Shown: piece by piece, positions 5,852-37,573 of the stretch | How the letters are laid out: every line of letters starts with the position of its first letter | Numbering within the stretch: the first letter of the stretch is position 1 | DNA from: Bryobacterales bacterium | GTDB lineage: Bacteria; Acidobacteriota; Terriglobia; Bryobacterales; Bryobacteraceae | Length of the DNA stretch: 54,572 nucleotides | Direction of reading: 5' to 3' | NCBI GenBank assembly: GCA_043785065.1 | Contig: JAYVXT010000108.1 | Coordinates: 1-54,572, forward strand | Translations under genes and position numbers: made by a program | Notes under the pieces: model-generated | The model's database searches: none | Told to the model about the DNA's origin: nothing | The model's input: the letters and a program-made list of their open reading frames with translations, nothing else

Positions 5852-8800
5852 CTAGAATTGCACACGCAGGCCGAAGCGTGCTTGGCGTTCGCCGAACGAA
5901 CTGCGAACGCTTAAGAAGTTGTTTCCAAGATTGGCGACGCTGGTGCTAGCCATACCTCCGAAGTGGGACGTATTGGGGAAGTTGGTTGCTTCTCCGCGGA
6001 ACTCGATCTTGATCCTTTCGGTGACGACGAACGTTCTGTTGAGCGAAAGATCCGTGTTCCAGACGCCTGGGTTGCGGAGGATGTTGCGGCCGGTGGAGCC
6101 GAAGCGCGTTGTGGTGACGGGGGCGAAGGCCGATGCGTCATACCAGAATGTGCCGGGGCCAACTTGTGATAGCCGTACAACTTCGGGCTTCACTTGGTCA
6201 GCGGTTTGTGCGTTGCCCCCACCGATGTTAAGCGAAGTGCCGGAAGCGCCGACCGTGAACGGAGTACCGGTGTAAGCGGCCATGATGCCGCCAACCGACC
6301 ATCCGCCAACAATATATGCCGCCGGTCCGCTTGAAGCCCATGACTTTCCCTTGCCGAACGGAAGTTCATAAACCCATCCGACGTTGAAAATGTGAGTACG
6401 ATCATATCCTGCTAGTGCTCGGTTGCGGTTGAATACTGGAGCCCAGTTCCAACCCACCCCGGCCCAGCCGTCTTCGTCGGTCATGTTAATGGCCTTTGAC
6501 CAGGTGTAGGAGCCCTGAATCATCAGGCCTTGAGAGAACTGCTTGCGGAAGCTGTTTTGCAAGGAGTGATAGTTAGAGCTGAGGTAACCATCCCACATGT
6601 TGGTGGCGATTTGGCGCCCGAACTTTGCGTTGTACGGACGGCCGGCGTTTCCGAGGCCCGGGGATGAGGAGTTAATGTCCAGATCCGCTAGTTGGTGAAC
6701 AGTCTGCGTGCCAACGTAGGCCAGCGTAACGATGACAGATTGGGGCAAGCGGCGTTCAAAAGTGGCGTTCCACGATTGCACGTAGCCACGATGAATCTGA
6801 CCTAGGTTGGGGCTACGCATATCAGCAACGGCCGGAAGGTTGACGATGCCGGTTGAAAGATCCGGACCCTGCACATCGGGAATGCCTTGGGCCAAAGTCC
6901 GTATTGTCGCGTAGGCGTTAGGCGCATCGAAGTTGAAGTTCACGGTTAGGGGATAGAATCCTCGCAATGGGCGAGAGAATGGAAGCGGATCGAAGTTGAT
7001 GCCATAACCCATGCGAAACACGGACTTTTCATCAATGCGATAAGCCAAACCGATCTTCGGAGCAAACAGCTTGTGGCTTACGGTGACGCCGCAATCCTTC
7101 GGCTGATTGCCGCGGCCACCGAGGCAAACTTGGTTGGTCAACGGTTCAAGCCGTTCAATACCCTTGCCCGTGGCGCGGGTCATCAGAGGATAGAGTTCGT
7201 AGCGCAGGCCAAGGTTTAAAGTAAGTTTGCGCGTCACCTGCCAACGATCTTGGGCATACCAGCCAAACTGGAATTCGCGAGGAGTCATCAGGATGTACTG
7301 GATGCTCTTCTGCACATTGTTCGATTCGCCAAGAAGGAAGGCTGCATAGGCATTGAAGTTGTTGGCGCTTGGTCCACCGTTTAGAGCGGTTGGTCCACCA
7401 GAAAAGTCAATGGCGCCACGCGGACCTGCGCCCAACTCAGGCTGATAGTGCGTCATACGGTGGTTGACGCCGTCAAAGCCGAAGCGGAATAGGTGGGCGC
7501 CTTTCGTGTAGCTCAAGTTGTGGCTGGTGGTGTAGCTTTCCTCGACACGGTTCAAAGGCATCCAACCAGGGACGCCAAAGCCGTTGTATCCACTAATACT
7601 GATATTGGGGAAGCCCGAAGCCATGATATCGTTGGGATTATTGATGCCGGGAATTCCCAGAATCTGGCTGTAGTTCTTGCCGAAGTCAACGCCGCGAACC
7701 GTTTGATCCTGGCGTTGATAACCGAACACGCCGTCGAGCAACAAGTTCGGGCCCAAGGTGTAGTTGTGGCCGGCGGACATGTTTTGAACGCGGGTATCGC
7801 CAGTACCGGGATCGGCACCGGGCGATGGTCCAACACCGTCACCGAAAATCGCTTTACCGGAGACGAGCGCCTTCATGATTCCATAGTGGCCCCATACCTG
7901 CGACTTTTCATTGCGGGTCCAGTTGATCTTCACATCGTTGTAATCGCGATGGAAGAGTGGGCCGCCGGTGGCATCAAGGTTACTATTAACTCCGGCCTTG
8001 TTTGGGTTTGGATAGTTGGCCTGAATTTTTTGGGCGGCCGAGCTGATGCGGCTGGTAGGAATCATATTTCCAGGGAACGCTTGCCTGCCTACGCCGTTAG
8101 CGGCGCCAGTGGCAGGATCGTAGATGGTTGTGCCGGTGGTTGCAAAGTTACCTCCGCGAATATCGGCGGTAGGCACGGAGTAGGTTCCGAATGCGCCGTC
8201 GCGCTGACGGGTGCCATCGAAGCTGTAAAAGAAAAATAGCTTGTTCTTCTTGATTGGTCCGCCGATTGTTGCGCCGTAATTGTTGTAGGTGCGGATCGGC
8301 TTCACCGGCGAAAAAAAGTTGCGGGCCTTCAAGTGATCGTTATCGTGGAACTCAAAAGCGCTGCCGTGAAATTGATTGGTGCCGCTCTTGGTGACCAGTG
8401 TGATTGAGGCGCCGCCGGCCATACCCTGCTCGGCGTCGCCCGCGGAGGTGGTGACGTTGACGGTGGAAACCATTTCGGCGGGCATAACGTAGCCGGTGTG
8501 GTGGGGCAGCCAAAGGTTCACCGAGGCGGCGCCATCGATACGGGTCATGTTGTTGTTGGCGTTTGTGCCGTTGATGTTGGTGCGCAACGAACGGCCTGGC
8601 GAATCTGTAACCGAATTCTGGAAAGACGACGGGGTCGCGCCAGGGACGAGGTTAATCAAGCTTTGATAGTTGCGGTAACCCGGCAACGGTAAGCTGGAAA
8701 TTTGTTGGGCATTCAATTCGGTATGCGTGTCAGCCTTGTCGGTCTGCAGTGTCGTGGCTTGTGCTTCAACAGTGATCGTGTCGGAAGTGGAGCCCACTTC

Positions 8801-9133
8801 CAGACGGGCGTTTTGCCGGGTGACCGTGTTAGCGGTTATGCCCAGGTTACGATAGGTTTCAGTCTTAAAACCGGCGTTGGTGACTTTAAGATCGTAGCTG
8901 CCAGGAAGAACGTTGGAGATCAGATAACGACCGCCTTCGTCTGTCTTGGCTTCGTAAGTTTGGCCTGTACCCTTATTCGTTAAGGAGACGGTAGCGTTCG
9001 GAATCAACCCGCCCGATGCATCTTCAAGCACGCCGATTACTGAACCGTAAAGGACTTGGGCAACCGCTGGGGTTGTCCAACAAATCATCATGGCAAGCGC
9101 CACGATGGGGAAAGATATTTTTCTTAGATTCAT
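5852..9133 (-). CDS. TonB-dependent-receptor-like outer-membrane protein with N-terminal carboxypeptidase-regulatory-like domain
   Basis: Start at ATG 9131-9133 gives MNLRKISFPIVALAMMICWTTPAVAQ, a signal peptide. The CarboxypepD_reg-like module is GVLEDASGGLIPNATVSLTNKGTGQTYEAKTDEGGRYLISNVLPGSYDLKV. About 1000 aa of beta-barrel-type sequence follow, ending in the terminal aromatic ...GLRVQF. Confidence 0.85.
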   Translation of the reverse strand: MNLRKISFPIVALAMMICWTTPAVAQVLYGSVIGVLEDASGGLIPNATVSLTNKGTGQTYEAKTDEGGRYLISNVLPGSYDLKVTNAGFKTETYRNLGITANTVTRQNARLEVGSTSDTITVEAQATTLQTDKADTHTELNAQQISSLPLPGYRNYQSLINLVPGATPSSFQNSVTDSPGRSLRTNINGTNANNNMTRIDGAASVNLWLPHHTGYVMPAEMVSTVNVTTSAGDAEQGMAGGASITLVTKSGTNQFHGSAFEFHDNDHLKARNFFSPVKPIRTYNNYGATIGGPIKKNKLFFFYSFDGTRQRDGAFGTYSVPTADIRGGNFATTGTTIYDPATGAANGVGRQAFPGNMIPTSRISSAAQKIQANYPNPNKAGVNSNLDATGGPLFHRDYNDVKINWTRNEKSQVWGHYGIMKALVSGKAIFGDGVGPSPGADPGTGDTRVQNMSAGHNYTLGPNLLLDGVFGYQRQDQTVRGVDFGKNYSQILGIPGINNPNDIMASGFPNISISGYNGFGVPGWMPLNRVEESYTTSHNLSYTKGAHLFRFGFDGVNHRMTHYQPELGAGPRGAIDFSGGPTALNGGPSANNFNAYAAFLLGESNNVQKSIQYILMTPREFQFGWYAQDRWQVTRKLTLNLGLRYELYPLMTRATGKGIERLEPLTNQVCLGGRGNQPKDCGVTVSHKLFAPKIGLAYRIDEKSVFRMGYGINFDPLPFSRPLRGFYPLTVNFNFDAPNAYATIRTLAQGIPDVQGPDLSTGIVNLPAVADMRSPNLGQIHRGYVQSWNATFERRLPQSVIVTLAYVGTQTVHQLADLDINSSSPGLGNAGRPYNAKFGRQIATNMWDGYLSSNYHSLQNSFRKQFSQGLMIQGSYTWSKAINMTDEDGWAGVGWNWAPVFNRNRALAGYDRTHIFNVGWVYELPFGKGKSWASSGPAAYIVGGWSVGGIMAAYTGTPFTVGASGTSLNIGGGNAQTADQVKPEVVRLSQVGPGTFWYDASAFAPVTTTRFGSTGRNILRNPGVWNTDLSLNRTFVVTERIKIEFRGEATNFPNTSHFGGMASTSVANLGNNFLSVRSSFGERQARFGLRVQF

Positions 9134-9174
9134 TTTGAAACTCCCCGAAGCTTTTATTCGTCTAATCAACTTGG

Positions 9175-10502: not shown

Positions 10503-11372
10503 ATGGTTTATCGTTTATTTCCGGCTGTGTTGGTCATCTTCATCGCCGCGGCCCTGCCGGCCAAAGCGCAACTCAGTGCGCGCCAGATTTTTTATGACGA
10601 TGGGAGCGATAAGAAGAATACGCCCCCGGCAAAACCGGCCATCGTAAACCCACCGAAGCCCAAAGCCGTGAAAAAAACTCCACCCGTACCCAAACCGGTA
10701 AAACCAAGCGAGGGAAATGAACCCGTAAAGATGAAGGGGCCGCCGGAGACAGTTTCACAGGCGCCTTATCAAGAGGTACAGGCCGTGCCTCTGGCTCTTC
10801 GCTACAGCATCTTGAAAATACTGCCTTCCGATGAATCCATGGAAGTGGATGCGGAGACCAGTTTCCGAACTGGCGACAAGATTCAATTAATGGTGGAGGG
10901 CAATCAGGCGGGGTATCTTTACATTTTCAGTCAAGGCACAAGTGGAACCTGGCGGCCCCTGTTCCCCTCATCGGAAGTAGAAAATGGCGACAACCGGATC
11001 CGCCCTCACAAACCTGTCATTCTTCCCGGGGAAAGTGAAGTCATAAAATTCGCGGGGAAACCAGGCAAGGAAAGGTTGTTCATACTCTTGTCGCGTAACC
11101 CCGACGAGGACATCGACAAACTCATCTACCAGCAAACAAGCAGCTCACGCACCATGATCGCAGCCGCGCCTATTAAGGGTTCGGCCGTGGACAAGCTCAA
11201 AGTGCAAGCGCGGGACCTGGTGATTGAGAGTGTCAAGGAAAAAGCGGCCGCCAGCGCGAGACCAATGGCCGGTTCGTCCGGCAGGATGAGTGAATCGGCA
11301 GTGTATGTTGCTACAAAAGATGTTTCCTTAAACGCCAAGGTGGTTGCGGAAATCAACCTCAAACACGAGTAG
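10503..11372 (+). CDS. Exported DUF4384-domain protein with Pro/Lys-rich linker
   Basis: The signal peptide is MVYRLFPAVLVIFIAAALPAKAQ. The linker is PPAKPAIVNPPKPKAVKKTPPVPKPVKP. The DUF4384-type core is FRTGDKIQLMVEGNQAGYLYIFSQGTSGTWRPLFPS...IRPHKPVILPG...FAGKPGKERLFILLS. GTGAGGTAG lies before the ATG. Confidence 0.75.
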   Translation: MVYRLFPAVLVIFIAAALPAKAQLSARQIFYDDGSDKKNTPPAKPAIVNPPKPKAVKKTPPVPKPVKPSEGNEPVKMKGPPETVSQAPYQEVQAVPLALRYSILKILPSDESMEVDAETSFRTGDKIQLMVEGNQAGYLYIFSQGTSGTWRPLFPSSEVENGDNRIRPHKPVILPGESEVIKFAGKPGKERLFILLSRNPDEDIDKLIYQQTSSSRTMIAAAPIKGSAVDKLKVQARDLVIESVKEKAAASARPMAGSSGRMSESAVYVATKDVSLNAKVVAEINLKHE

Positions 11373-11379
11373 GCGGCAC

Positions 11380-12084
11380 ATGAAAACGATTTCACTACTG
11401 CTACTTTCGGCTCTAGCTTCCTGTTGGGCGGCGGAGGCTCCGGTCAAGACGCAATGGATGGATATCATCCTGGAACGGCAACAGGCGTCCCTCTGGACAG
11501 CGGTTGAACCTGGTCTTGTGCTGAATCAAGGGGACATAATCCGCTTTCGCTTCCGCTCTAATTTCGATGGGTACCTGTATGTCACCAATCGCGGCTCAAG
11601 CGGAGCGGAAATGCTTCTATTCCCAAGAGAAGAAACCGGTAAAGCGAACCGCATTCAAGCGGGAAGGGACTACCTGATCCCAGCCACGGAAACACACTTC
11701 CGGATCTCCGGCCCCTCCGGCTACGATTCCATCTATTGGCTGGTTAGTCCGGTTTCCTTATCGGTGGGGCCGTCACTGCCAAAAATGACGGAATCCAACC
11801 TGCCTCCCGCCAATCCGCCAGGCAACGTCCAGCCACAACAGCCCGCCTCGCTAACTCCGCGTTGCGACCCTGCGCAGCTTCGCGCCCGTGGTTTTTGCAT
11901 CGATAGCGAAGCCGGTGTGCGAAACGTGGACGATCCTTCAAAGGCTCCGGCTAAAATCGCCCAGACTCCCGACCTACAACCGAGAGATTTAACTATGATA
12001 CAAAGCAAAAACAAGACTCGCATTTCCACCGGTGGCGCCATTGGTGGGCCCGTGGTTTACCAATTTCGTCTTGCCCATAATTAG
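11380..12084 (+). CDS. Exported DUF4384-domain protein (second paralog)
   Basis: ATG 11380 gives MKTISLLLLSALASCWAAEA, a signal peptide. The core is LNQGDIIRFRFRSNFDGYLYVTNRGSSGAEMLLFPREE...IQAGRDYLIPA...FRISGPSGYDSIYWLVSP, the same pattern as the preceding gene. Confidence 0.75.
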   Translation: MKTISLLLLSALASCWAAEAPVKTQWMDIILERQQASLWTAVEPGLVLNQGDIIRFRFRSNFDGYLYVTNRGSSGAEMLLFPREETGKANRIQAGRDYLIPATETHFRISGPSGYDSIYWLVSPVSLSVGPSLPKMTESNLPPANPPGNVQPQQPASLTPRCDPAQLRARGFCIDSEAGVRNVDDPSKAPAKIAQTPDLQPRDLTMIQSKNKTRISTGGAIGGPVVYQFRLAHN

Positions 12085-12156: not shown

Positions 12157-14439
12157 ATGGCTAAAGACGCAATCTTAGAAGCCGACCTCGGCGGCATTCC
12201 GATCTCACCAGACGAACTGGCGGCGATCCCTGATTTTTCCGCCATTCGTAAAGAGATTTGGAGCAAGTTCCCCGGCGCCATCACCAAGAAAGTATTTAAA
12301 CCGGGTGAGATCATTATGCGGGAAGGCGAAAGCGGCTCAACCGCTTTTTACCTGCTTTCCGGTACTGTGGATATCTACATCAACAGTCCCATCGCCTCCG
12401 CCAAATCCAAACAGGGCAAATCCAAAAGCCTGTTCCAAGGCATCACCAAAATCACCAGCTACCTGAAGGGCATCCCGGAGCGCAACGAAAAAGGACGCGC
12501 CGTTCGGTCCCATATTCCCATTGATGCCTCGGTCGACCTGCCCATGGACAACCCCATCGCCTCCATTGGCCCTGGTGAGCTGATAGGCGAACTAGCCGCC
12601 TTGGCCGCCTTAAAGCAGGATCGCCTCAAGCGTCCCAAATTCTATCCGCGCTCGGCCACCGTTCGCGCTAAAACCGACGTCGAAATGCTGGAAATGTTGC
12701 CCAACATTTTGAACAACGTGCTCTACAACGCCCCTGCCTTCAAGGACAAGCTCAACAAGAACTACCGCACCCGCGCCCTTGACGCGCACTTCCGCTCCGT
12801 CCCCGTTTTCCGCGACGTCAGCCAGGAATTTCTCGACAAGCTGCGCGACCGCGTGGAACTGGTGGACGTCGTCCCCGGCCAAGTGATCTGTAAGCAGGGC
12901 GATGTGGCTGACGCCTTTTATCTGGTGAGGCTAGGGTTCGTGAAAGTGGCTCAGGATTTCCCTGGTGGCGAATTCGTGCTTACCTATCTTTCCCGCGGTT
13001 CTTACTTTGGCGAAATGGGCCTGCTTCCGCCCGTTTTCCGCGTCCGCGCCAAGGGCATCGAACCGGGGCAAACCGCCGAAGGAGCCCTAACATCGGAACC
13101 TCTCACATGCGGCCGCGCGCCGGAAGGCGAACGAGGTTTCGCCGCAGGCTGGGACGACTATATTTCCCGCGAGCATTTTCAAATGGCCGCTGAAGGCCGC
13201 CAAGTCCGCGTCACCAATCTTCCCTCGGGCAAGAACCCCATCCTGTTCCGCATGAAACCGGCCGATAGCTTCTTGATTTCACCCGGTGAGACTTTCGTTG
13301 TCGGCAACACAACGTTCGAAATCCTGGAAGATCCGTTCCTCACAGGCAAGCGCACCGCCACCTGCACTTCTATGGACTTCGTGCAGTTGGTGAAGATCAA
13401 GGCCGAAGACTTCGCTGCCATGCTGATCGAGTTCCCCTCGGTCAACGCCTCCATCACCGAAGTGGCGCGCGCCCGCCGTCAGATGGACATGCAGTTGTTG
13501 AACCGCGTCCAAACCGTTTCGCTCAACGACTTCTTAAAACAAGAACTGATGCAGGGTCAGAACCTGCTACTGATCGACCTGACTAAATGCACCCGTTGCG
13601 ACGAATGCGTCAAGGCTTGCGTTTCCACCCATACCGATTCGGTAACCCGCCTGATCCGCGACGGCCTGCGCTTCGACAAATACCTTGCGCCCACCAGTTG
13701 CCGCGCCTGCATGGACCCGCTCTGCATGACTCGTTGCCCGGTAGGTTCCATCCGCCGAAAAGAGTCGCTCGACATTGTGATTGAGGATTGGTGCATCGGC
13801 TGCGGCAACTGCGCCAATGACTGCCCCTATGGCAACATCAACGTCGTTGAACTGGTGAACGAAGGCGTCAAGGGGCAGAAGGCCGAACCCAAACCCAAAG
13901 CCGTCGTCTGCGATCTTTGCACCGAATACGCCGAACCCAATTGCGTGCGCGCCTGCCCGCACGACGCGGCTATCCGCGTTGAGCCGAAATCCTTCTTCGC
14001 TAAGGAACTTGCCGGCCTGCAACTAGCCGTTCCCAGCTTACCGGCCTCCGTCGCCCCGCAAGCCGCGGTCGAAGCTATGCCCGGCGGCGGCAATATGGAA
14101 ACACGCATCTATTCCAATGCCAGCGACCTGCTGCCGCTCTTGCCGCAATTGAAAATGGTGGAAGGCCCACGCCCAGGTTCTACATTGCAGTTGCGAATCC
14201 CCGCCACCACTTTTGGCCGCGGCGCCGAAAACGATTACCGCTTCGCCGACGACACGCAGCTTTCCCGCAACCATTGCCGCATCGTCATGGAAAACAGGCG
14301 CTTCATGCTGACCGACAACGGCTCCACCAACGGAACCTTCGTCAACGGCAACCAAGTGACGGAAATCGAACTGCGCTCCGGCGACTTGATTGAGTTCGGC
14401 GAGGTCAAGCTGGAATTCCACTCGGGGCAAATCCAATGA
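12157..14439 (+). CDS. Multidomain redox/signalling protein with four parts: cNMP-binding domain, cNMP-binding domain with a nested FHA-like insert, four-cluster [4Fe-4S] ferredoxin module (DmsB/NrfC/PsrB-like), and C-terminal FHA domain
   Basis: 760 aa.
- CNB1, about aa 30-190: GEIIMREGESGSTAFYLLSGTV ... GELAAL...RSATVRA.
- CNB2, about aa 212-440: FLDKLRDRVELVDVVPGQVICKQGDVADAFYLVRLG...YFGEMGLL [insert] KRTATCTS.
- FeS module, nt 13564-13989, 16 Cys in four motifs: CTRCDECVKAC, CRACMDPLCMTRCP, CIGCGNCANDCP, CDLCTEYAEPNCVRACP.
- FHA, nt 14152-14427, with all canonical residues: FGRG...SRNHCRI...STNGTFVNG...GDLIEFG.
- No Sec or Tat signal. Confidence 0.9.
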   Translation: MAKDAILEADLGGIPISPDELAAIPDFSAIRKEIWSKFPGAITKKVFKPGEIIMREGESGSTAFYLLSGTVDIYINSPIASAKSKQGKSKSLFQGITKITSYLKGIPERNEKGRAVRSHIPIDASVDLPMDNPIASIGPGELIGELAALAALKQDRLKRPKFYPRSATVRAKTDVEMLEMLPNILNNVLYNAPAFKDKLNKNYRTRALDAHFRSVPVFRDVSQEFLDKLRDRVELVDVVPGQVICKQGDVADAFYLVRLGFVKVAQDFPGGEFVLTYLSRGSYFGEMGLLPPVFRVRAKGIEPGQTAEGALTSEPLTCGRAPEGERGFAAGWDDYISREHFQMAAEGRQVRVTNLPSGKNPILFRMKPADSFLISPGETFVVGNTTFEILEDPFLTGKRTATCTSMDFVQLVKIKAEDFAAMLIEFPSVNASITEVARARRQMDMQLLNRVQTVSLNDFLKQELMQGQNLLLIDLTKCTRCDECVKACVSTHTDSVTRLIRDGLRFDKYLAPTSCRACMDPLCMTRCPVGSIRRKESLDIVIEDWCIGCGNCANDCPYGNINVVELVNEGVKGQKAEPKPKAVVCDLCTEYAEPNCVRACPHDAAIRVEPKSFFAKELAGLQLAVPSLPASVAPQAAVEAMPGGGNMETRIYSNASDLLPLLPQLKMVEGPRPGSTLQLRIPATTFGRGAENDYRFADDTQLSRNHCRIVMENRRFMLTDNGSTNGTFVNGNQVTEIELRSGDLIEFGEVKLEFHSGQIQ

Positions 14440-15404
14440 TCGTCGATCGCGGCCAGTTGCAATGGATCTATGCCACCACGGCCATCGCCATGGCCTCCAC
14501 CGCAGCCTACCTTGTGTACGCCGTCCTGTCGGCCAACGGCCCTCGCGCTGGCTCGGCAATGGGTTTGGTCTTCGGCTTTGCCGGCACGGGGATCATCATT
14601 TTTGAATGCCTGCTCAGCTTGCGAAAGAAGTACCCGGCCTCTCCGGTTGGCCGTGTCAGCTTGTGGATGCGCGCGCATGTGTGGCTGGGTCTGCTCAGCC
14701 TTTTGCTGATCCTGTTCCATTCGGGCTTCCATTGGGGGCGAGGCCTCGCTAGTCTGCTCATGTGGCTGTTCGCCATCATCGCTATAAGTGGAGTGGTAGG
14801 CGTCGCGCTTCAGAATTACATCCCCACGCGAATGATGGAGCTGGTTCGCCGCGAAACCATTTACGCCCAAATTCCCCACAACATTATTGAATTGCGCCGC
14901 GAGGCCGACGAGCGCACCGAGTTCGTCACGGCCGATCTTGGCGTTGAGGAAACCGACGTGGAATTCCAGCGCGCGGGCGGTGTGAAGCAGTACTTCGACC
15001 CTTCGCAAAAAGCCGGGGCCGCTGAAAAGCTAGCCGTATTTGTGGAGCAGCGCAGGAAGACCAGGCAGATCGACGTGGGCGACGAAGGAGCCGGCATTCT
15101 GCGCTCCCACTACCTGCAGGAGATCCGTCCCTACTTATTTCAAAAGCCGCAGCCGCTTTCCGGAAAGCTATTCCAGACCGAGCAATCCGTGCGCGCTTAC
15201 TTCAATTTCCTGCGCACCATCATGCCGGTGGCCGCGCATTCGGTCTTGACCGATCTGGAATCCATTTGCGAGGAGCGCCGGCAGCTTGCCGTGCAAACCC
15301 GCCTTCATCATTTATTGCATGGGTGGCTCTACTTGCACGTGCCGCTATCCATGGCGTTTCTGGTTCTAATTTTGATTCATGCGGTGGTGTCGCTCCGCTA
15401 CTAA
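14436..15404 (+). CDS. Integral membrane protein, 5 predicted TM helices and a ~165-aa cytoplasmic insert; candidate dihaem cytochrome-b-like (ferric-reductase/MsrQ-like) subunit
   Basis: The ATG overlaps the upstream stop (ATGA at 14436-14439). Hydrophobic segments lie at about aa 10-31, 41-62, 78-97, 103-127 and 295-320. Histidines sit at both ends of TM3 (RAHVWLG...LFHSGFHWG) and TM5 (LHHLLHGWLYLHVPL...LIHAVV). The RAHVWLGLLSLLLILFH pattern recalls ferric-reductase-domain haem-ligand helices. Coding status is confident; the cofactor assignment is inference. Confidence 0.6.
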   Translation: MIVDRGQLQWIYATTAIAMASTAAYLVYAVLSANGPRAGSAMGLVFGFAGTGIIIFECLLSLRKKYPASPVGRVSLWMRAHVWLGLLSLLLILFHSGFHWGRGLASLLMWLFAIIAISGVVGVALQNYIPTRMMELVRRETIYAQIPHNIIELRREADERTEFVTADLGVEETDVEFQRAGGVKQYFDPSQKAGAAEKLAVFVEQRRKTRQIDVGDEGAGILRSHYLQEIRPYLFQKPQPLSGKLFQTEQSVRAYFNFLRTIMPVAAHSVLTDLESICEERRQLAVQTRLHHLLHGWLYLHVPLSMAFLVLILIHAVVSLRY

Positions 15405-15405
15405 T

Positions 15406-16734
15406 ATGTCCAAAGAAGAAAAACCGATACCGTATGAATCGCGGATCATCGACACCAAGGGCACGGCCCAGAGGCTGGACCTGCGCTATCTCGAAAAGCC
15501 TAACCGCTTCATCGATCTGCGCAAGAAACTTACTTGGATCGCGCCGCTGGTTGCCGCCGTTGCCGCCATTCCGTTTCTAACCGGCATTGGCCCGCTCAAT
15601 AAAGTTTTCTCCAACGGCCCCATATCGAAGCCGCACGCCATTTTTGAGCAGAACTGCCAGCTATGCCACGCCAAAGCATTTTCCAAGGTGGCGGACGCAA
15701 GCTGCATCAAGTGCCACGACGGCCCAGCGCATCCAGCGAAGTTAGTGGACACAGGCAAGCAGAACCGCGACGTCCGCTGCGCTACTTGCCACCTGGAACA
15801 CAAGGGTTCAACCAATCTGAAGGAGGTCTCCAGCAAGAACTGCACCACCTGCCATGCCTCGCTCAATGAAAACGGCACAGGCGTGCATCTCAAGAATGTT
15901 TCGGTAAGCGCCTTCAAGGAAGGCAAGCATCCCAATTTCCCCGAGCCCGGTTTAATAGACAACCGCCCCTTGAAATTGAATCATGCCGCACACATGCCCA
16001 AGGACCCGAAGACAATTCGCGGCATGAAGCTGCCGATGAGGTGCACCGAATGCCACACCACTTCAGCAAACCTCGCCACCGGCGGCCTTGAGCCCGTCAC
16101 GTTCGAGGCTAATTGCAAAGACTGCCACAAGCGCGAACTGGAGTTCCTATTGCCCGGCCTCACGGCCCAGGCCTCTCCGGCGCCGCACACTAAGGACGTG
16201 GCCAAGATCCGCCAACACATTCTAGAAACCTATCAGCGGCTGGTGGCGGAAAATCCTTCCCTTACCATGCAGAGCCTTGATCGCGAAATGACCACCGAGC
16301 CCAGTCCTGCGGCGTGGATTGCGAAAGCTGCGAAGAAATCGGAACAATACTTATTTGAAAACAAGTGCAAGTACTGCCACGAATATGACGGCATGGACGA
16401 TGGCTTTCCCCTGATCAAAAAGGTAAACCGGATTCGTGGCCGTTACGTCGCCGATAAGCCCGAAGGCGAACCTTGGCTCGTGCGTGGGGAATTCGCCCAT
16501 CGCGCCCACCGCGCCGTGGACTGCTCATCCTGCCACTCCACCTCCAAAGCCAGCACCAAAACTTCCGACGTACTCATCGCCGGAATGAAGGATTGCGTGG
16601 CGTGCCATGGCAATAGCGGCACGGCCATCGACAACTGCTCACAGTGCCACCTATATCACAACAAGGCGAAAGAAAAAGACCATGACCGCCGCAGCGTGGA
16701 AGAACTGGTCGGCGCCTTAAGAGGAAGTTACTAA
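15406..16734 (+). CDS. Membrane-anchored decahaem c-type cytochrome
   Basis: Start at ATG 15406, 1 nt after the upstream stop. There is an N-terminal anchor helix (LTWIAPLVAAVAAIPFLTGIGPL) preceded by DLRKK. I counted ten CXXCH motifs: CQLCH, CIKCH, CATCH, CTTCH, CTECH, CKDCH, CKYCH, CSSCH, CVACH, CSQCH. Confidence 0.9.
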   Translation: MSKEEKPIPYESRIIDTKGTAQRLDLRYLEKPNRFIDLRKKLTWIAPLVAAVAAIPFLTGIGPLNKVFSNGPISKPHAIFEQNCQLCHAKAFSKVADASCIKCHDGPAHPAKLVDTGKQNRDVRCATCHLEHKGSTNLKEVSSKNCTTCHASLNENGTGVHLKNVSVSAFKEGKHPNFPEPGLIDNRPLKLNHAAHMPKDPKTIRGMKLPMRCTECHTTSANLATGGLEPVTFEANCKDCHKRELEFLLPGLTAQASPAPHTKDVAKIRQHILETYQRLVAENPSLTMQSLDREMTTEPSPAAWIAKAAKKSEQYLFENKCKYCHEYDGMDDGFPLIKKVNRIRGRYVADKPEGEPWLVRGEFAHRAHRAVDCSSCHSTSKASTKTSDVLIAGMKDCVACHGNSGTAIDNCSQCHLYHNKAKEKDHDRRSVEELVGALRGSY

Positions 16735-16737
16735 ACC

Positions 16738-17454
16738 ATGCAACTGTTCGGACTCTGCCATATTGGCCGCGTGCGCCAAAATAACGAGGACTGCCTGCGA
16801 ATCGAACCGGACCTCAACACAGTGATTGTCGCCGACGGAATGGGCGGGGCGAACGCCGGTGAAGTGGCCTCGGCCATCACAGTCGAAACCATTGTTGAGT
16901 ACCTTCGCAATCCACCGGAAACGCTTGCCGTTGCCGAGCGAATCAAAGAAGCCATCCGCGCCGCGAATGCTAAGGTTTGGCGGACGGCCCAGCAGCGTCC
17001 GGAATGCTCGGGCATGGGTTCCACTATCGTCATGGCCCATTGGGAAGGCGATCAGATTTGGATCCAAAATGCGGGCGATAGCCGGGCCTACCGTCTGCGG
17101 AATGGCGAACTGACGCAGCTCTCCTACGATCAGAATTTGGGCAATGACCTTCGCCACTCGCTTGGCTTGACCGCCGAGCAAGTCAAAAAATACCCGCAAC
17201 GCAACGTCCTAACCATGGCTGTAGGCGTAGGCAGCGACATTTTGGTGCGCTGCTATGAGGAGCCGATGGAACCGGGCGACACCTACTTGCTCTGCTCCGA
17301 CGGACTTTACGGGCCAGTTAAGGAGCCCGAACTTTTGGAAATCATGAAGAGCCCGCTTCCATTGCCAGCCTTGGCGGCTACGCTGGTGGACCGGGCCAAC
17401 GCAAATGGCGGCCCAGACAATATCACGGTGGCGCTTTTGCGTCATGATAAATAG
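16738..17454 (+). CDS. PP2C-family Ser/Thr protein phosphatase (Stp-like)
   Basis: 238 aa with RVRQNNEDC, VADGMGGANAGEVAS, LLCSDGL and GGPDNITVALL, the PP2C metal-binding motifs. It begins 3 nt after the cytochrome stop. Confidence 0.9.
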   Translation: MQLFGLCHIGRVRQNNEDCLRIEPDLNTVIVADGMGGANAGEVASAITVETIVEYLRNPPETLAVAERIKEAIRAANAKVWRTAQQRPECSGMGSTIVMAHWEGDQIWIQNAGDSRAYRLRNGELTQLSYDQNLGNDLRHSLGLTAEQVKKYPQRNVLTMAVGVGSDILVRCYEEPMEPGDTYLLCSDGLYGPVKEPELLEIMKSPLPLPALAATLVDRANANGGPDNITVALLRHDK

Positions 17455-17459
17455 GATCC

Positions 17460-18656
17460 ATGGAAGCAATCGGCGCATATAAGATTCAGAGCACTCTCGC
17501 CGCGGGCAGAAGGCCCGTTTATCTGGCCACGTCTAAAGACGGGAAAAAAGTTGTCATTAAGACGGCCCCAGTTAAGGAATTGGGGGAGGAAGAACGCGCC
17601 CGTTTCCTACGCGAAGCCGGGATCTGCTCCAAGCTCGATCACCCCAATCTGGTTAAGGTGATCGAATCGGGTGAAGCGAATGGGGTTCTCTATCAAGTGA
17701 TGGATTATCTCGAAGGCATGGACTTGAACAAGGCATTCGCCGCAGGACGGCAATTCACTTGGGCCGATAAACTAAGCATTCTTGAAGCGGTATGCTCCGG
17801 TTTGCAATATGCGCACGCGCAAGGTTTGGTTCACCGCGATATCAAACCAGCCAACCTGTTTCTGGAAAATGCGGGCAACATGCGCATCCTCGATTTCGGC
17901 ATGGCGCGTGAAGGCGCGTCCGAGTTGACGAAAGTGGGCTCCGCCGTCGGCACGCTGAACTACATGGCGCCGGAACAGATTCGCGGAGAAACCTGCACTG
18001 CCGCCACCGACGTGTTTGCGGTCGGCATTGTGATGCACCAACTTTGCACCGGCCATCATCCTTTCGCCATGGGCAAGAAGACTTTGCCGGAGATCCTCAG
18101 CGCCATCTTATTCGATGCACCGCCCGTATGGGGCGAAGCCGGAGACGGCGCGCCCGAAGGGTTGGAATTCGTCACCCGCCGTGCACTTGAAAAGGATTCC
18201 GAAAAGCGCTGGCATAATGCCGGGGAACTAAAGCAGGCTGTGTCGCTCTGCCGCTTTACGCTGGATAACAAACCCGCCGATGCGGCATTTTCTCAAGTAA
18301 CGTCCGCGCCCGCGGTCGCGCCGCGCGAGCCGGAAATAGAAAAGACCATTGTTGTAAAACGCGATGCTCCGCGGCCCGTTGCACCCGCACCTCCGCCGGC
18401 TCCAGTGCCGCTTCCACCGCCCGCGCCAAAATCGGCGCCCGTTCCGCAGCCACCTTCGCAAACCAAGTTCTGCACGTCTTGCACCTATTCGAATCCGCGG
18501 GACGCCGTGGTGTGCGGCAAGTGCGGCATTCCCTTCGCGGCCGCAACGGCAAGTGAATCCGCATCCGGCGTCTCCAATAAAACGATGTGGATATTGGCGG
18601 CCGCAGTCGCATTGCTTGTTGTTGCTTTGATATTTGTGGGAGTCCTTTCCAATTAA
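17460..18656 (+). CDS. Hanks-type Ser/Thr protein kinase, C-terminally tail-anchored, with Pro-rich linker and zinc-ribbon
   Basis: Kinase motifs are VVIKT (catalytic Lys), HRDIKPANL, DFG and APE. A Pro-rich stretch (APAPPPAPVPLPPPAPKSAPVPQPP) follows. Then comes CTSCTYSNPRDAVVCGKCG (CxxC-N12-CxxC, nt 18471-18524). The C-terminal TM helix is MWILAAAVALLVVALIFVGVL. Confidence 0.9.
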   Translation: MEAIGAYKIQSTLAAGRRPVYLATSKDGKKVVIKTAPVKELGEEERARFLREAGICSKLDHPNLVKVIESGEANGVLYQVMDYLEGMDLNKAFAAGRQFTWADKLSILEAVCSGLQYAHAQGLVHRDIKPANLFLENAGNMRILDFGMAREGASELTKVGSAVGTLNYMAPEQIRGETCTAATDVFAVGIVMHQLCTGHHPFAMGKKTLPEILSAILFDAPPVWGEAGDGAPEGLEFVTRRALEKDSEKRWHNAGELKQAVSLCRFTLDNKPADAAFSQVTSAPAVAPREPEIEKTIVVKRDAPRPVAPAPPPAPVPLPPPAPKSAPVPQPPSQTKFCTSCTYSNPRDAVVCGKCGIPFAAATASESASGVSNKTMWILAAAVALLVVALIFVGVLSN

Positions 18657-20234
18657 ATGGCTACTCCCCCGCGCATCGTCATTATTGGCGGAGGCTTCGC
18701 CGGCGTCTATGCCGCCCGCGCCCTTGAAAAATTACTAAAGCCGTGGGAGGCGGAGATCTGCCTCATCAACCGCGAAAACTATTTCGTCTTCCAACCGCTC
18801 TTGCCGGAAGTCATTAGCGGGGCAATCGGCCTGGTCGAAACTGTGTCTCCCATTCGACGCCTATGCCCCCGCACCCAACTCTACGTGCGGGATGTGGAAG
18901 CCGTCGATCTGCGCGAAAAGATCGTCCGCATGACTCCAGCCACACGCCCTCGCGCACTGGACCTGCCTTACGACTTTCTAATTATGGCCCCCGGAACGGT
19001 CACTGATTTTTCCGGCATGCCGGGCCTGGCGGAGTATGCCCTGCCCTTCCGCACCCTAGGCGATGCCTTGCGCTTACGCAACCGCGCCTTGGAATCGCTT
19101 GAGGAAGCGGCCATCGAAAAGGACGAGTGGTTCCGCAAGCGGCTGCTAACGTTCGTCATCAGCGGCGCCGGATTTTCCGGAGTGGAAGTAGCGGCTGAAC
19201 TCAACGATTTCCTGCGCGCAGCCGTGAAGGATTTCCGTAGTCTAAATGCCGAGGAAATCCAGGTCATCCTGGTCCATTCGCGGGAACGCATCCTGCCGGA
19301 AATGGCGCCGGAGCTGGCCGAATATGCTCAGAAACTTCTCGCAAAGCGCGGAGTCACTTTGAAGCTGGGCGTGCGCGTGAAATCATGCACCGCCGACACA
19401 GTGATCCTAAACAACGGCGATTGGATTGAAGCGCGCACCGTGATTTCAACCGTTCCCTCCGCCTTAACACCACTTGTAGCAGCGATGGATTGCAAGAAGG
19501 AAAAAGGCCGCCTGGTAGTGAATGGGCAGTTGGAAATGGCGGGATTTGAAGGCCAAGCGTGGGCCCTTGGCGACTGCGCCACCATCATGATGAGCGACGG
19601 AACAGCCGCTCCGCCCACGGCACAACACGCCACGCGCGAGGCCTATGTCGCCGCCGCAAACATCGTCGCTTGTGTCCGCGGCAATAGCGACCGGCGCACC
19701 TTTAACTTTGCAGGCCTCGGCAAACTAGGCTCACTTGGCCATCATTCCGCGGTAGCCGAAGTGTTCGGTATGAAAATCTCCGGCTTCCCGGCCTGGGTGC
19801 TCTGGCGGACAATTTATCTGATGAAGATGCCCGGACTTGACCGCAAACTGCGCGTCGGGCTCGATTGGTTCACCGGCATGCTCTTCAAGACCGACCTGGT
19901 CCAACTGCGCGTGCAGACATCGAGCAACATCACCAACGAGCATTTCGAGGCTGGCCAAATCGTCTTCGAACAAGGCGATGCCCCCGACCGTCTTTACATC
20001 ATTCAAAAAGGCGAAGTGGAAGTATTGCGCGATGGTGAGCGGTTGGCCTCGATCGGTGAGGGAGAATCATTCGGAGAAATGGGTCTACTGACCAATTCCC
20101 CTAGAAACGCAACCATCCGCGCCTCCAAGCCAACCGACGTTGTGGCTATCACAAAAGGCGACGTCACCCAATTGCTGAACAATTTTCCCGAACTCCGCGC
20201 GGGTTTGCAAGGCATCGCCGAAAAACGCAAGTAG
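18657..20234 (+). CDS. NDH-2-type NAD(P)H/FAD-dependent oxidoreductase fused to a C-terminal cyclic-nucleotide-binding domain
   Basis: N-terminal IVIIGGGFAGVYAA (FAD Rossmann), second dinucleotide fold FVISGAGFSGVEVAAEL, then WALGDCA. The C-terminal 100 aa (nt 19929-20231) form a CNB fold with an intact phosphate-binding cassette, FGEMGLLTNSPRNATIRA. The ATG directly abuts the kinase stop codon. Confidence 0.9.
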   Translation: MATPPRIVIIGGGFAGVYAARALEKLLKPWEAEICLINRENYFVFQPLLPEVISGAIGLVETVSPIRRLCPRTQLYVRDVEAVDLREKIVRMTPATRPRALDLPYDFLIMAPGTVTDFSGMPGLAEYALPFRTLGDALRLRNRALESLEEAAIEKDEWFRKRLLTFVISGAGFSGVEVAAELNDFLRAAVKDFRSLNAEEIQVILVHSRERILPEMAPELAEYAQKLLAKRGVTLKLGVRVKSCTADTVILNNGDWIEARTVISTVPSALTPLVAAMDCKKEKGRLVVNGQLEMAGFEGQAWALGDCATIMMSDGTAAPPTAQHATREAYVAAANIVACVRGNSDRRTFNFAGLGKLGSLGHHSAVAEVFGMKISGFPAWVLWRTIYLMKMPGLDRKLRVGLDWFTGMLFKTDLVQLRVQTSSNITNEHFEAGQIVFEQGDAPDRLYIIQKGEVEVLRDGERLASIGEGESFGEMGLLTNSPRNATIRASKPTDVVAITKGDVTQLLNNFPELRAGLQGIAEKRK

Positions 20235-20304
20235 GGCTGGCCCGTGTCATACCCACCCCAAAACCTCAAATTTGATAGACTTCTCTACAAATCAGGAGGG
20301 CTTC

Positions 20305-23300
20305 ATGTTTCGTTCGATTCCTCTTATCCTCATTGCCGCGTTGTTTGCCGCAAAAGTGCATGCGCAAACAACATTCGCCACCATCACAGGCGTAATCACC
20401 GATCCTGGCGGAGCAGTCGTCCCTGGCGCTGAACTTATCGTCACCCACGTTGAAAACAACTATCGCTACACTGCCCGCTCAAACGAAGCAGGCAACTACA
20501 ATATCACGCAACTTCGCGAAGGCGTCTACACTCTGCGCGTGCAAGCCCCGGGATTCAGTGAATCTCTTGTGCAAGAAATCCGCCTGGTTTCACTCGATGT
20601 CCGCCGCATAGACGTACGGCTTGCTATCGGCACGCTGGAAGCGAAGGTGGAAGTCACCGCCGGGGCAGCGCTCATCGAAACCGAAACCGCGCGCATCAGC
20701 GATTCCAAAGGTGCGGATTCGCTCAAAGCCCTGCCGATGAACACGCGCTCGCTCTGGAACTTCGTGGGCCTATCGCCCGGCGTCGTGCAAGCGGGGAACG
20801 GATCGTCAACCCGTCGCTTCGCCGGAAGCCGCGCCAATCAATCGGACGCCTCAGTGGACGGCGTGACCATTAGCAACAACATCGACGGCACTCAGATTTC
20901 GCCCCTGGTCAGCTACATCGAAAGCTTCGAGGAAGTGCGCGTCGACATGGCCAACAACACATCGGAATTCGGCTCCATCGGCCAGGTAACTATCATCTCT
21001 AAATCAGGCACGAACCAGTTGCATGGCAGCTTCTTCGATTACTACTCAACGCCATTTTTCCGCGCGCGCAACCCATTCGCGGCAACGCGCGGCACCGGCG
21101 TCAGGCACTCCCCAGGCGGATCGGTTGGCGGCCCCGTTGTGATTCCACAAATCTACAACGGCCACAACAAAACGTTTTTCTTTTACTCACTGGAAACTTC
21201 GCGGGGCAGCGCCATGCAACAACTGGTGAACCCCACCGTGCCGCTGGTCCCATGGCGATCCGGAGATTTTTCCGCACTCGCCGCCACCACCGTCATTCGC
21301 GATCCTTTCGCTTCTAACGCACCCTTCGCCGGCAACCGGCTTCCGGCCAACCGCATTTCTACCGTCTCCCAAAAGATTCAAGATCGCTTCTACCCGCTCC
21401 CCAATTTCGGCAACACCGCCACGTTAGTAAGCCAAAATTATCGCGAGCAACTCTCGCGCGAATTCGACCCCGACCTTTATTGGACCACGCGCATCGACCA
21501 TCGCTTTTCCGAAAAGAGTTTCGTCTTCGGCCGCTACACCTGGAACAATTCCTATAGCCGCCCCTTTGAAGGTAACCTGCCCACTATTGGCCAGTTGTGG
21601 CAAATTCGCGATACTCGCGCGCTCAACTTTTCCTACACGCAAACCATCAAAACAAATTTGATCAACGAATTCCGCTTTGGTTTCGCCTACAACGATCAGC
21701 CGCGCAACGGTGCACAAAATGGCAATCAACTGGCTAAGGATTTGGGATTACAAGGCCTTGCCCCTGGCATTCCGGATATCAACGGCATCTTGAAGCTCGG
21801 CTTCTCCGGCATAGGCGTCACCGGCCTCACGCAAACTGATTGGCGTCATCCTGGTTTCAAGAATTACCCGAAGCAGTTTCAAGAACAGTTGAGTTGGTTC
21901 CGCAACAAGCACACAGTGAAAGCCGGCGCGCTTGCCAGTTTCGTCCGGTTTGAAGATAACCAGGCGCCCGCCAACCTATTCGGCAGCGTCAGTTTTTCCA
22001 ACCGATTCACCAATCACCCCTATGCTGATTTCTTGCTCGGCATCCCCACCACGGCCGCGCGCGCTTTTCCCCAAACCTATGTCGACCGCTCGCGCCCCAA
22101 CTACGATCTCTTCATCATCGACGATTACAAGGTTTCGCCGAAGATGACTCTCAACCTGGGGATTCGCTACGAATTTCACCCAGCCTGGACCGAAGCCAAT
22201 GGCTTGCAATCGATCTTCGATATCGCCACCGGACAAATCGTAGTGCCTGACGGCTCGCTCAGCCAGGTCAGTTCTATTTTTCCAAAAAGCTACGTCAATG
22301 TAGTGGAAGCCAAAGCCGTGGGCCTGCCCGGCGGAACGCTGATCAAGACCGACAAAAACAACTTTGCGCCGCGCATCGGTTTGGCATACCGGCCATGGGG
22401 CAACAACACGGTAATCCGCGCCGGCCTCGGCATCTTCTTCGATATCGTGCCACGCCAAGTGACCACTAGTGGCGCGCCCTTCAGCGTGGCCGAACCCAAC
22501 TTCACCAATCCAACACCTGTGCCCACGCTGCTGTTCCCCCAAGTGTTTCCCGCAACGGTGGGCAATCCAACTACAGTGGTGCTGCCGGGCGCTATTCGCA
22601 CAGACCTGCGCGTGCCGTACAGCATGCAGTATAACTTCACTATTGAACATCAGCGCTGGAATAATGGTTTCCGCGCCAGCTACATTGGCACCAACACAAG
22701 GCAAGGCGAATGGGGTTACAACATTAATCAGCCTGTTGCCGATGCGCGCGCCTTCATCGACAAGCCACGCTTGTTCCCCAATTTCCCGGCCCTTACATAC
22801 ACAAGCAATGGTTCCGGCCACCAGTACAACGCCATGACGTTGGAAGTGCACCGCCGCTTTCTGAAGGGCTTCTCCTATCAGCTTTCCTGGGTTTTGGCCC
22901 GCGATATCGGCGATCTGGAACGCGGCGAATCCCCCGAGGATGCTTACAACCGGCACCGCGAAAAAGCAGTGTGGGTTGATATTCCCACGCATCGCGTCAG
23001 CGGCAACGTCATCTATGAATTGCCTTTCGGCAAAGGAAAGACGTTCCTTTCTAAAGCTGGCCGCGCCCTCGATACTGTTGCCGGCGGCTGGGAGTTGAGC
23101 GTTATCTACAGCTCTTATTCAGGCCAATTCCTCACGCCGCAGTGGACCGGCATTGACCCCACAGGCACTGCCTTCACCACCAGCCGCACCGCGGCGCAAG
23201 TGACAATTCGTCCCAACGAATTAGTGGACCCTAATCTCGATAGCGGATCGCGTTCAGTTAGCCGTTGGTTCGACCCCTCGGCGTTCGGTGCACCGGCCGT

Positions 23301-29749: not shown

Positions 29750-29766
29750 TGATATGATGTTTGTGG

Positions 29767-32428: not shown

Positions 32429-32431
32429 TAT

Positions 32432-35403: not shown

Positions 35404-35405
35404 GC

Positions 35406-37277: not shown

Positions 37278-37573
37278 TTCAGCAAATCCACTTCGTCGGC
37301 TTGCACGCTTCCCTTGTTGCGGAACAGCGCGATCAAAACGCCGAGACCCACAGCCGCCTCAGCCACCGCCACGGCTATCACAAAAATGGCGAACACTTGA
37401 CCAGTCACTTGGTTGTGATACTTCGAGAAGGCAATAAGATTGACGTTCACCGCATTGAGGATCAACTCAATCGACATGAGGATCACAACAATGTTGCGGC
37501 GCGTCAACACACCCAATGCGCCAATCAACAGCAGCGCCGCCGATACCGCCAAATAGTGGTTGATGGTGATCAT
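37271..37573 (-). CDS. nuoK: NADH-quinone oxidoreductase subunit K
   Basis: 100 aa and 3 TM helices, with LMSIELILNAVNVNLIAF. Confidence 0.92.
   Translation of the reverse strand: MITINHYLAVSAALLLIGALGVLTRRNIVVILMSIELILNAVNVNLIAFSKYHNQVTGQVFAIFVIAVAVAEAAVGLGVLIALFRNKGSVQADEVDLLKW

Follow-up and report, generated by a model that had tools for sequence, protein, structure and literature searches.

A polyferredoxin with cyclic nucleotide-binding and FHA domains encoded beside a membrane protein and a decahaem cytochrome c in Bryobacterales

The closest described counterpart of the system considered here is encoded by the ptdABCDEFG operon, which occurs in marine Alphaproteobacteria (UBA11136), Nitrospirales and Planctomycetes (bioRxiv 2024, 10.1101/2023.11.21.568154). 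In that operon PtdC is an FAD/NAD(P) oxidoreductase, and the last three genes specify a protein with a cyclic nucleotide-binding (CNB) domain and 4Fe-4S clusters (PtdE), a ferric-reductase-like protein that spans the membrane (PtdF) and a ten-haem protein of the periplasm (PtdG) (10.1101/2023.11.21.568154). A trio of the same three-gene order lies in a 54,572-nucleotide stretch of DNA from a Bryobacterales bacterium (assembly GCA_043785065.1, contig JAYVXT010000108.1), called the window below; the trio is likened to PtdE/PtdF/PtdG by description, not by sequence. The first gene of the trio, referred to as the target, specifies a soluble protein in which two CNB domains, a four-cluster ferredoxin and an FHA domain follow one another, and in which a second FHA domain is lodged inside the phosphate-binding cassette of the second CNB domain.

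The two systems differ in several respects. The Ptd paper counts two clusters where the target has four, and it mentions no FHA domain, cassette insert, kinase or phosphatase. The pentahaem PtdA, the porin PtdB and the tetrahaem PtdD are missing from the window, which carries one multihaem open reading frame (ORF) and an unrelated dihaem ORF; cytochromes with four CxxCH motifs do occur beside distant members of the target family. The oxidoreductase PtdC is paralleled in the window by an NDH-2-like gene. An FHA or PilZ domain in a CNB cassette, a C-terminal FHA domain, a kinase/phosphatase pair and NuoEFG fusions, all of which are described below, are mentioned neither in the ptd preprint nor in the literature covered by full-text searches.

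Domain architecture and the FHA domain inside the CNB2 cassette

The target has more than 2000 homologues at E ≤ 1e-10, and the best 120 of them are all about 750 amino acids (aa) long. Public annotation names them "cyclic nucleotide-binding domain-containing protein" or [quoted passage not shown]. A fusion of CNB, CNB, four-cluster ferredoxin and FHA had been proposed earlier from the letters of the DNA alone (the original prediction); Pfam, the cysteine motifs and the fold models all uphold it, and every sequence string that it quoted was recovered at its residues. Pfam finds cNMP_binding in three stretches (92.3 bits; cut-off 27.5) and several Fer4 or 4Fe-4S families spanning aa ~470-612. 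When the full-length AlphaFold model was compared with the PDB using Foldseek, the best matches were the tandem CNB domains of PKG and PKA-R (E ~1e-12, ~420 aligned columns). Because such tandem-CNB matches dominated the search, the insert of the second CNB domain (CNB2) was modelled separately (aa 286-404).

By profile comparison and fold prediction, the 105-aa CNB2 insert is a true FHA domain, divergent but not degenerate as the original prediction had called it. It bears the landmarks CGR (318-320), ISREH (336-340), LPSGKN (355-360) and PGETFVVGNTTFEI (376-389). The Pfam FHA model PF00498 gives no match to it at the curated threshold, and the insert alone scores 20 bits against the FHA-clan family PF16697 (E 8e-4), which is below the cut-off of 33.2. 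Profile-profile alignment with hhalign pairs the insert with the protein's own C-terminal FHA domain from end to end (probability 85%, E 6e-6, 93 columns), in a register that brings the GR, SRxH and N of the two domains into line. Searched against PDB sequences, the insert profile retrieves FHA domains only, led by that of DgcB (E 1e-4) and followed by GarA, Rv0020c, APLF and Ki-67.

Structure prediction gives the same answer. The insert is the best-predicted part of the full-length AlphaFold model (pLDDT 83-95), and modelled alone with AF2 it folds into 11 strands (pLDDT 88, pTM 0.81). The top 50 Foldseek matches of this model in the PDB are all FHA domains, with a root-mean-square deviation of 2.5-3.3 Å over ~100 columns; the first is GarA (E 1e-6, target-normalised TM score 0.76). 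An FHA beta-sandwich is thus predicted to emerge from within the CNB2 cassette, as had been anticipated for aa 292-400.

The insert is also well conserved. Conservation of target residues was scored over 66 aligned homologues, and in all of them G319, R320, W332, D333, S337, H340, N360, F380, G383, T385 and F387 are invariant, which includes the five FHA hallmark residues. Mean identity to the window protein is 60% for the insert and 62% for the C-terminal FHA domain, compared with 40% for the Pro/Ala linker. Among 50 loci from species-representative genomes, which with few exceptions carry the label Bryobacterales, Solibacter or broader Acidobacteriota (one is labelled Acidimicrobiia), every full-length match has the insert. 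It is therefore kept across an order of Acidobacteriota with its hallmarks intact, and its origin as a lineage-specific accident can be ruled out. From the hallmark residues it can be predicted to read phosphothreonine.

The cassette that hosts this domain is split, as the original prediction had noted: its halves, FGEMGLL (284-290) and RTATCTS (399-405), stand 108 aa apart (nt 13030-13356). Relatives that lack the insert read FGEIGLL-x(2-4)-RTATC at this place. The termini of an FHA domain lie close together, on the side opposite the peptide-binding loops. Here the domain occupies a solvent-exposed loop that links the cassette helix with the phosphate-binding arginine, so that with its termini close together the insertion need not destroy the cassette. 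G285 and E286 are invariant, and R399, T400 and A401 are at least 90% conserved in the homologue alignment. The earlier suggestion was that the FHA domain may convert a nucleotide sensor into a phosphopeptide sensor. Since the cassette keeps its Gly-Glu and Arg-Thr-Ala, an added input is as likely as a substituted one, and from these residues a dual input, nucleotide plus phosphopeptide, appears at least as likely as a conversion.

The first CNB domain (CNB1) is unusual too. An insertion of ~57 aa in its beta-barrel agrees with the ~60 aa predicted. The insertion carries the motif HIPIDxxxDLPxxNPIA throughout the family, and a wider form, IPIDxxxDLPxxNPxA, is found in distant members as well; its mean identity to the window protein is 50%. 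The cassette is elongated, again as predicted, and is ~11 aa longer than in members of the wider family; the spacer from GELAAL to RSATVRA is 15 aa (150-164) and not the 14 aa first counted. G144, E145, R165, S166 and A167 are invariant. Neither cassette has the canonical contiguous length: 19 residues separate the glutamate from the arginine in CNB1 (E145-R165) and 112 in CNB2 (E286-R399), compared with about 8 in canonical members. By the Pfam threshold, the tandem CNB fold and the Gly-Glu and Arg-[ST]-Ala contacts both domains belong to PF00027; nucleotide binding is a prediction only.

The ferredoxin module contains four cysteine groups, C478x2Cx2Cx3C, C515x2Cx4Cx3C, C546x2Cx2Cx3C and C585x2Cx7Cx3C, and all 16 cysteines are invariant. 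Its closest solved sequences are HycB4 and HycB3 of HDCR, the AOR polyferredoxin, HycB of FHL, and ArrB (E 1e-15 to 2e-10); the best, HycB4, matches at E 1e-15 over positions 19-156 of the 165-residue query, and HycB3 at E 9e-13. The NCBIfam HydN model gives 52.8 bits, short of its cut-off of 260, and Fer4_11 gives 17-24 bits, below its cut-off of 26.2. The N-terminus, MAKDAILE, has no twin-arginine motif, the cytoplasmic CNB domains stand first, and no hydrophobic or transmembrane segment and no signal peptide were found anywhere in the 760 aa. The module thus has the 4x4 cysteine spacing of the DmsB/NrfC/PsrB type without a twin-arginine signal, in line with the original prediction, whose four-cluster, cytoplasm-facing ferredoxin is likewise supported, the closest solved relatives being electron wires of the HycB type. 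It appears to be a cytoplasmic polyferredoxin, in which the conserved cysteines would hold four [4Fe-4S] clusters.

Statements on genes missing from the neighbourhood refer to a Pfam scan of a subset of the window ORFs. Among those scanned there is no molybdopterin subunit, no NrfD/PsrC, no hydrogenase and no formate dehydrogenase. A Tat-exported subunit like DmsB, NrfC or PsrB can be rejected: there is no export signal, no molybdopterin or NrfD partner among the ORFs scanned, and Fer4_11 stays below threshold. The statement that no molybdopterin or NrfD partner is encoded nearby is literally true; the picture of an orphan wire that it conveyed does not hold, for a membrane partner of a different kind and a decahaem cytochrome follow directly downstream.

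The C-terminal FHA domain is canonical. PF00498 matches aa 684-748 with 77.3 bits (E 1e-21; cut-off 20.7), and the five phosphothreonine-binding residues that the original prediction had listed are all present (G687, R688, S703, H706 and N725). The closest PDB sequences are GarA and OdhI (E 4e-14 to 3e-12), and in the Foldseek search of the full-length model the domain matches 4qcj (36% identity, target-normalised TM score 0.88). Ahead of it, after the variable Pro/Ala linker, stands the motif ETR[IV][YF]S, in which T649 is the same in every aligned homologue and E648 in at least 90% of them. T649 may be proposed, purely as a hypothesis, as a phospho-acceptor. An equivalence with the ETTS site of GarA and OdhI was considered and finds no support in the alignment with these proteins, outside which the motif falls.

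Membrane partner, decahaem cytochrome and the wider family

The two genes that follow are translationally coupled to the target. The first of them overlaps the target stop codon and specifies a membrane protein in which H81 and H95 lie in one helix and H301 and H315 in the last, each pair 14 residues apart. Like H291 and H295, these four histidines stay invariant down to homologues that share 35-43% identity. The pattern is typical of two-haem transmembrane cytochromes b, hence the reading of the protein as a putative two-haem cytochrome b. Twelve members of this protein family give sub-threshold Pfam matches to DUF4405 (9 of 12), Ferric_reduct (8 of 12) and prokaryotic cytochrome b561 (2 of 12). 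The protein also has an invariant E140-T141 (RETIY) just after its fourth transmembrane helix, on the cytoplasmic side; the likeness to the ETRIY of the target is superficial, and the pair persists in distant homologues that are partnered by an Fe-S protein lacking FHA domains.

The third gene specifies the decahaem cytochrome c, whose weak TmcA-like match (E 7e-8) is below the cut-off. Its start is ambiguous: the ORF list begins at an ATG at 15379, inside the upstream gene, and the ATG at 15406, one base past the upstream stop, fits the homologues better. The order Fe-S gene, membrane gene, decahaem gene is found in every Bryobacterales locus with enough flanking sequence, usually with overlapping starts and stops, and a phosphatase, a kinase or both follow the trio in most of these loci. 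Of nine contexts of distant family members, 8 have the membrane gene adjacent and 6 a multihaem cytochrome c gene, and kinases or nucleotide cyclases neighbour distant versions of the target.

The wider family was collected by an exhaustive search of 50%-identity representatives with a cut-off of E ≤ 1e-30. The 702 clusters obtained have a common core of CNB1 (with the same barrel insertion), CNB2, linker and four-cluster ferredoxin. In 115 clusters, the window protein counted in, both CNB2 and the ferredoxin could be located; the CNB2 cassette is uninterrupted in 84, holds an FHA domain in 5 and another insert in 1, and is undecidable in 25. The FHA bearers form two groups, the Bryobacterales type and P0187/P0221. 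The inserts of P0187 and P0221 pass the Pfam FHA threshold (E 2e-13 and 2e-16), and both proteins read FG[FL]E where others have FGE. A crude nearest-neighbour comparison of core similarity, which is not a phylogeny, finds that the two groups are not each other's nearest relatives and hints that FHA domains were inserted repeatedly and independently. At exactly the same point of the cassette P0124 carries a PilZ domain of the c-di-GMP type (PF07238, E 6e-14), as do P0274 and P0275; the type is rare, with three 90%-identity clusters. Genes for a membrane-partner homologue and two multihaem cytochromes flank that of P0124 (locus L051, 5010-6860). FHA and PilZ domains in the same loop of relatives lend indirect support to the idea that an insertion here may alter what the CNB2 sensor reads.

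Other members are extended at the N-terminus. One to three FHA domains are added in P0125, P0145 and P0206, and NuoG-like 2Fe-2S/4Fe-4S modules in P0135, P0313 and hundreds of ~720-aa proteins of Candidatus Acidoferrales. P0246 is a single 1483-aa fusion of NuoE, NuoF and NuoG-like modules with CNB-CNB-Fer4. In locus L059 (Candidatus Acidiferrales) the genes for NuoE~F, NuoG-like~CNB-CNB-Fer4, the membrane protein and the decahaem cytochrome stand in operon order; L053 has the same four genes in a different order, plus a kinase and a cyclase. Class III cyclase genes (Guanylate_cyc) lie beside these two distant operons (L053, 14591-16465; L059, 12530-14899, with CHASE2) and are plausible local sources of cyclic nucleotide. 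A further subfamily of 850-1250 aa (P0188, P0193, P0198, P0204, P0232 and ~30 other representatives) has 130-450 residues that interrupt CNB2 elsewhere, upstream of its cassette, and another ~170 residues that split the ferredoxin module; Pfam recognises nothing in either insert.

Features of the target and its operon in the window
Feature	Coordinates	Strand	Description	Evidence
Target ORF	12157..14439	+	760-aa soluble protein: CNB1 - CNB2 (FHA inserted) - 4x[4Fe-4S] - P/A linker - FHA	Pfam, ORF list
CNB1 (aa 40-190)	12274..12726	+	cassette G144-E145 ... R165-S166-A167	Pfam, alignment
CNB1 beta-barrel insertion (aa 77-133)	12385..12555	+	~57 aa; pLDDT 30-40	AlphaFold, alignment
CNB2, N-terminal part (aa 215-291)	12799..13029	+	closes with cassette helix FGEMGLL	Pfam, alignment
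Inserted FHA (aa 292-396)	13030..13344	+	105 aa; hallmarks G319, R320, S337, H340, N360	hhalign, PDB profile, AF2, Foldseek, alignment
CNB2, C-terminal part (aa 397-448)	13345..13500	+	cassette end R399-T400-A401, beta7-8, C-helices	alignment, model
Four-cluster ferredoxin module (aa 473-612)	13573..13992	+	16 invariant Cys	Cys motifs, alignment
E648-T649 of ETR[IV][YF]S motif	14098..14103	+	after variable Pro/Ala linker, ~15 aa before C-terminal FHA	alignment
C-terminal FHA (aa 663-757)	14143..14427	+	canonical, GarA/OdhI-like	Pfam FHA, PDB sequence matches, pLDDT ~90
Membrane partner	14436..15404	+	322 aa, putative dihaem b; start overlaps target stop (ATGA); ~5 transmembrane helices, ~165-aa cytoplasmic loop	
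Decahaem cytochrome c	15406..16734	+	membrane-anchored, periplasmic; 10 invariant CxxCH, 10 further invariant His, N-terminal transmembrane segment aa 41-64	
Ser/Thr phosphatase	16738..17454	+	PP2C-type; syntenic in most loci	Pfam
Ser/Thr kinase	17460..18656	+	Hanks-type, Zn-ribbon, C-terminal transmembrane anchor; syntenic in most loci	Pfam, transmembrane scan
NDH-2-like flavoprotein	18657..20234	+	Pyr_redox_2, NDH2_C, C-terminal CNB	Pfam

The NDH-2-like gene that ends the series is found only in some relatives (L002-L005, L009, L011, L039 and L047). It is a candidate donor on the NAD(P)H side, and its C-terminal CNB domain suggests that the same nucleotide signal controls flavoprotein and Fe-S wire. 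Directly upstream of the target are two DUF4384 genes with N-terminal hydrophobic segments (10503-11372 and 11344-12084, both forward strand). This pair is syntenic mainly in the closest relatives: it is directly upstream in L001-L005, L042 and L046, L010 gives weaker matches, and in L009 the pair lies ~7 kb upstream. ORFs of ~1100 aa flank the operon at 5852-9169 (reverse), 20272-23580 and 23602-27168 (both forward). The latter two have CarboxypepD_reg and outer-membrane beta-barrel domains, and the first is alike by eye only; that they supply the missing outer-membrane component is pure speculation.

Elsewhere in the window, a complex-I cluster (NuoH, NuoN/M/L-type antiporter subunits and NuoD; 31250-39646, reverse strand) is of interest in view of the NuoEFG-like modules that sister lineages fuse to the target family. 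The ORF with two CxxCH motifs (42915-43937, forward) lies directly upstream of a PQQ-dependent dehydrogenase gene (43937-45637, forward), for which it is probably the cytochrome partner; it has no apparent relation to the target operon. Overlapping HTH_3 and DUF6036 (nucleotidyltransferase-like) genes (29761-30411 and 30392-30949, forward) look like a toxin-antitoxin or small defence pair.

A gated electron conduit and its competing explanations

The similarity to HycB-like ferredoxins, taken with the gene neighbourhood, points to the target as the cytoplasmic end of a transmembrane conduit. We consider it on balance probable that the target is the soluble, regulated subunit of a three-part transmembrane electron conduit that is gated by cyclic nucleotide and threonine phosphorylation. 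In this scheme the four-[4Fe-4S] HycB-like chain would exchange electrons with the five-helix, His-rich membrane protein, putatively through its two b haems, and the membrane protein would in turn connect to the periplasmic decahaem cytochrome c. CNB1 and CNB2 would read a cyclic nucleotide, and the inserted FHA and the GarA-like C-terminal FHA would read phosphothreonine. The Hanks kinase of the operon would write the FHA ligands and the PP2C phosphatase erase them. Binding of nucleotide or phosphopeptide would make the Fe-S module change its conformation or dock differently, and electron flow would thereby be turned on or off. The ultimate donor is likely NAD(P)H, which in sister lineages would be oxidised by the NuoEFG-like modules and in the window perhaps by the NDH-2-like flavoprotein. 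The NuoEFG-like fusions of sister proteins favour electrons moving outward from NAD(P)H. A more far-reaching idea, which we put forward only tentatively as a possibility, is that the cassette loop of CNB2 is a modular socket that has been filled more than once, with FHA and with PilZ, and through which phosphorylation, cyclic mononucleotides or cyclic di-GMP would gate the conduit directly and post-translationally. If true, this would represent a new principle, in which second messengers and kinases control the electron wire itself and not its transcription.

Several observations weigh against a gated conduit. The AlphaFold model has a pLDDT of ~30 in the Fe-S region, so that neither wire geometry nor domain packing can be derived from it. 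The membrane partner reaches no Pfam threshold, its profile has no homologue among proteins of solved structure (the search against the PDB gave only coiled-coil noise), and its two b haems are placed from the histidine spacing only. Distant locus L056 has no cytochrome, and P0246 has neither partner beside its gene. On the sensory side, a 105-aa domain inside its cassette puts nucleotide binding by CNB2 in question, H706 of the C-terminal FHA domain is replaced by Gln in many homologues, and the scanned ORFs of the window include no nucleotide cyclase. Ptd is the only matching trio found in the literature, and its function, according to the authors, "remains completely unknown" (10.1101/2023.11.21.568154).

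A different route for the electrons, through quinone, deserves attention. NarHI and FdnHI are built from a four-cluster ferredoxin and a dihaem-b membrane subunit; the Fe-S and membrane proteins could work like NarH/NarI or FdnH/FdnI, reducing quinone or oxidising quinol, with the decahaem cytochrome as an accessory branch and the sensors still gating the Fe-S subunit. It would suit such a module that the membrane gene accompanies the Fe-S gene more constantly than the cytochrome gene does (8 against 6 of the nine distant contexts, with L056 among those lacking the latter) and that the membrane protein has weak matches to prokaryotic cytochrome b561. Yet the decahaem gene comes directly next wherever a Bryobacterales locus has enough flank, and in most distant loci too, and the membrane protein cannot be recognised as NarI or FdnI; we judge a quinone-coupled module rather unlikely. 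Electrons might also flow as a signal and not as bulk respiration: the haem and Fe-S chain would sense redox conditions in the periplasm or outside the cell and pass them on to the cytoplasm, where CNB and FHA domains, kinase and phosphatase would turn them into a signal. Of the target's five folded domains four are signalling modules, the kinase and phosphatase lie within the operon, and some variants have a PilZ domain or as many as three additional FHA domains. Against such a device, sister proteins are fused to, or encoded beside, a complete NuoEFG-like NADH-oxidising module, which points to electron flow at substrate level; four clusters and ten c haems are large for a sensor; and there is no output domain such as a DNA-binding or GGDEF domain. 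We think a redox-sensing role improbable.

The sensors themselves might be relics, with CNB1 and CNB2 having lost nucleotide binding, the inserted FHA serving as a mere structural spacer, and the wire running constitutively. The non-canonical length of both cassettes, the failure of the Pfam FHA model to detect the insert and the FG[FL]E of P0187 and P0221 could all be taken as signs of decay. Decay would be hard to reconcile with contact residues that are invariant or nearly so in both cassettes, with five FHA hallmarks in the insert that are likewise invariant or nearly so, with a kinase/phosphatase pair conserved alongside, and with the recurrence of independent sensor domains, FHA and PilZ, at one site. 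Such a loss of function strikes us as very improbable, and the gated conduit is the reading carried forward here.

Significance and comparison with known systems

Respiratory and extracellular electron-transfer chains are usually controlled through gene expression. A wire with its own readers of cyclic nucleotide and phosphothreonine, encoded beside its own kinase and phosphatase, would switch electron flow directly and fast. The family is abundant in soil and peat Acidobacteriota, and its core trio, although it bears a name (Ptd), is uncharacterised. A single CNB loop in which two lineages have placed an FHA domain and another a PilZ domain may offer a blueprint for engineered allosteric sensors. 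The NuoEFG-like fusions suggest a source of the electrons, which opens the whole Ptd-like system to experiment; Solibacter usitatus Ellin6076, which is in culture and has an orthologue of the target (UniRef100_Q01YJ3), would be one suitable organism.

Parts of the target have parallels among known proteins. PKA-R and PKG also have two consecutive CNB domains (CNB-A and CNB-B) with Gly-Glu ... Arg-[ST]-Ala cassettes; the target differs from them by the 57-aa insertion and longer cassette of CNB1, the FHA domain in CNB2, and an effector that is an Fe-S wire instead of a kinase. HycB3 and HycB4 of HDCR (7qv7), HycB (7z0s), HydN and the AOR polyferredoxin (8c0z) are cytoplasmic four-[4Fe-4S] proteins with the same four cysteine groups; unlike the target, they lack sensor domains, and their docking partners are subunits of hydrogenase, formate dehydrogenase or aldehyde oxidoreductase. 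DmsB, NrfC and PsrB belong to the same superfamily and share the 4x4 cysteine spacing, whereas the target has neither a Tat signal nor, among the ORFs scanned, a molybdopterin or NrfD/PsrC partner. GarA and OdhI are most similar to the C-terminal FHA domain, and the Glu-Thr upstream of that domain loosely recalls their auto-inhibitory ETTS site. Their FHA domain, however, stands alone and is not part of a fusion, the ET motif of the target is much closer to its FHA domain and unaligned with ETTS, and the target is not a 2-oxoglutarate enzyme.

At the level of the whole assembly, the Tmc and Hmc complexes of sulfate reducers follow a like logic, in which a periplasmic multihaem cytochrome c and a membrane cytochrome b are combined with a cytoplasmic Fe-S protein. 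Their cytoplasmic subunit is HdrD-like (CCG domains) and not a HycB-like ferredoxin, their membrane subunits are unrelated to that of the target operon as far as tested, and they have no signalling domains. The nearest counterpart of the target and its two partners, by description, is the PtdE/PtdF/PtdG trio, a barely described and uncharacterised system.

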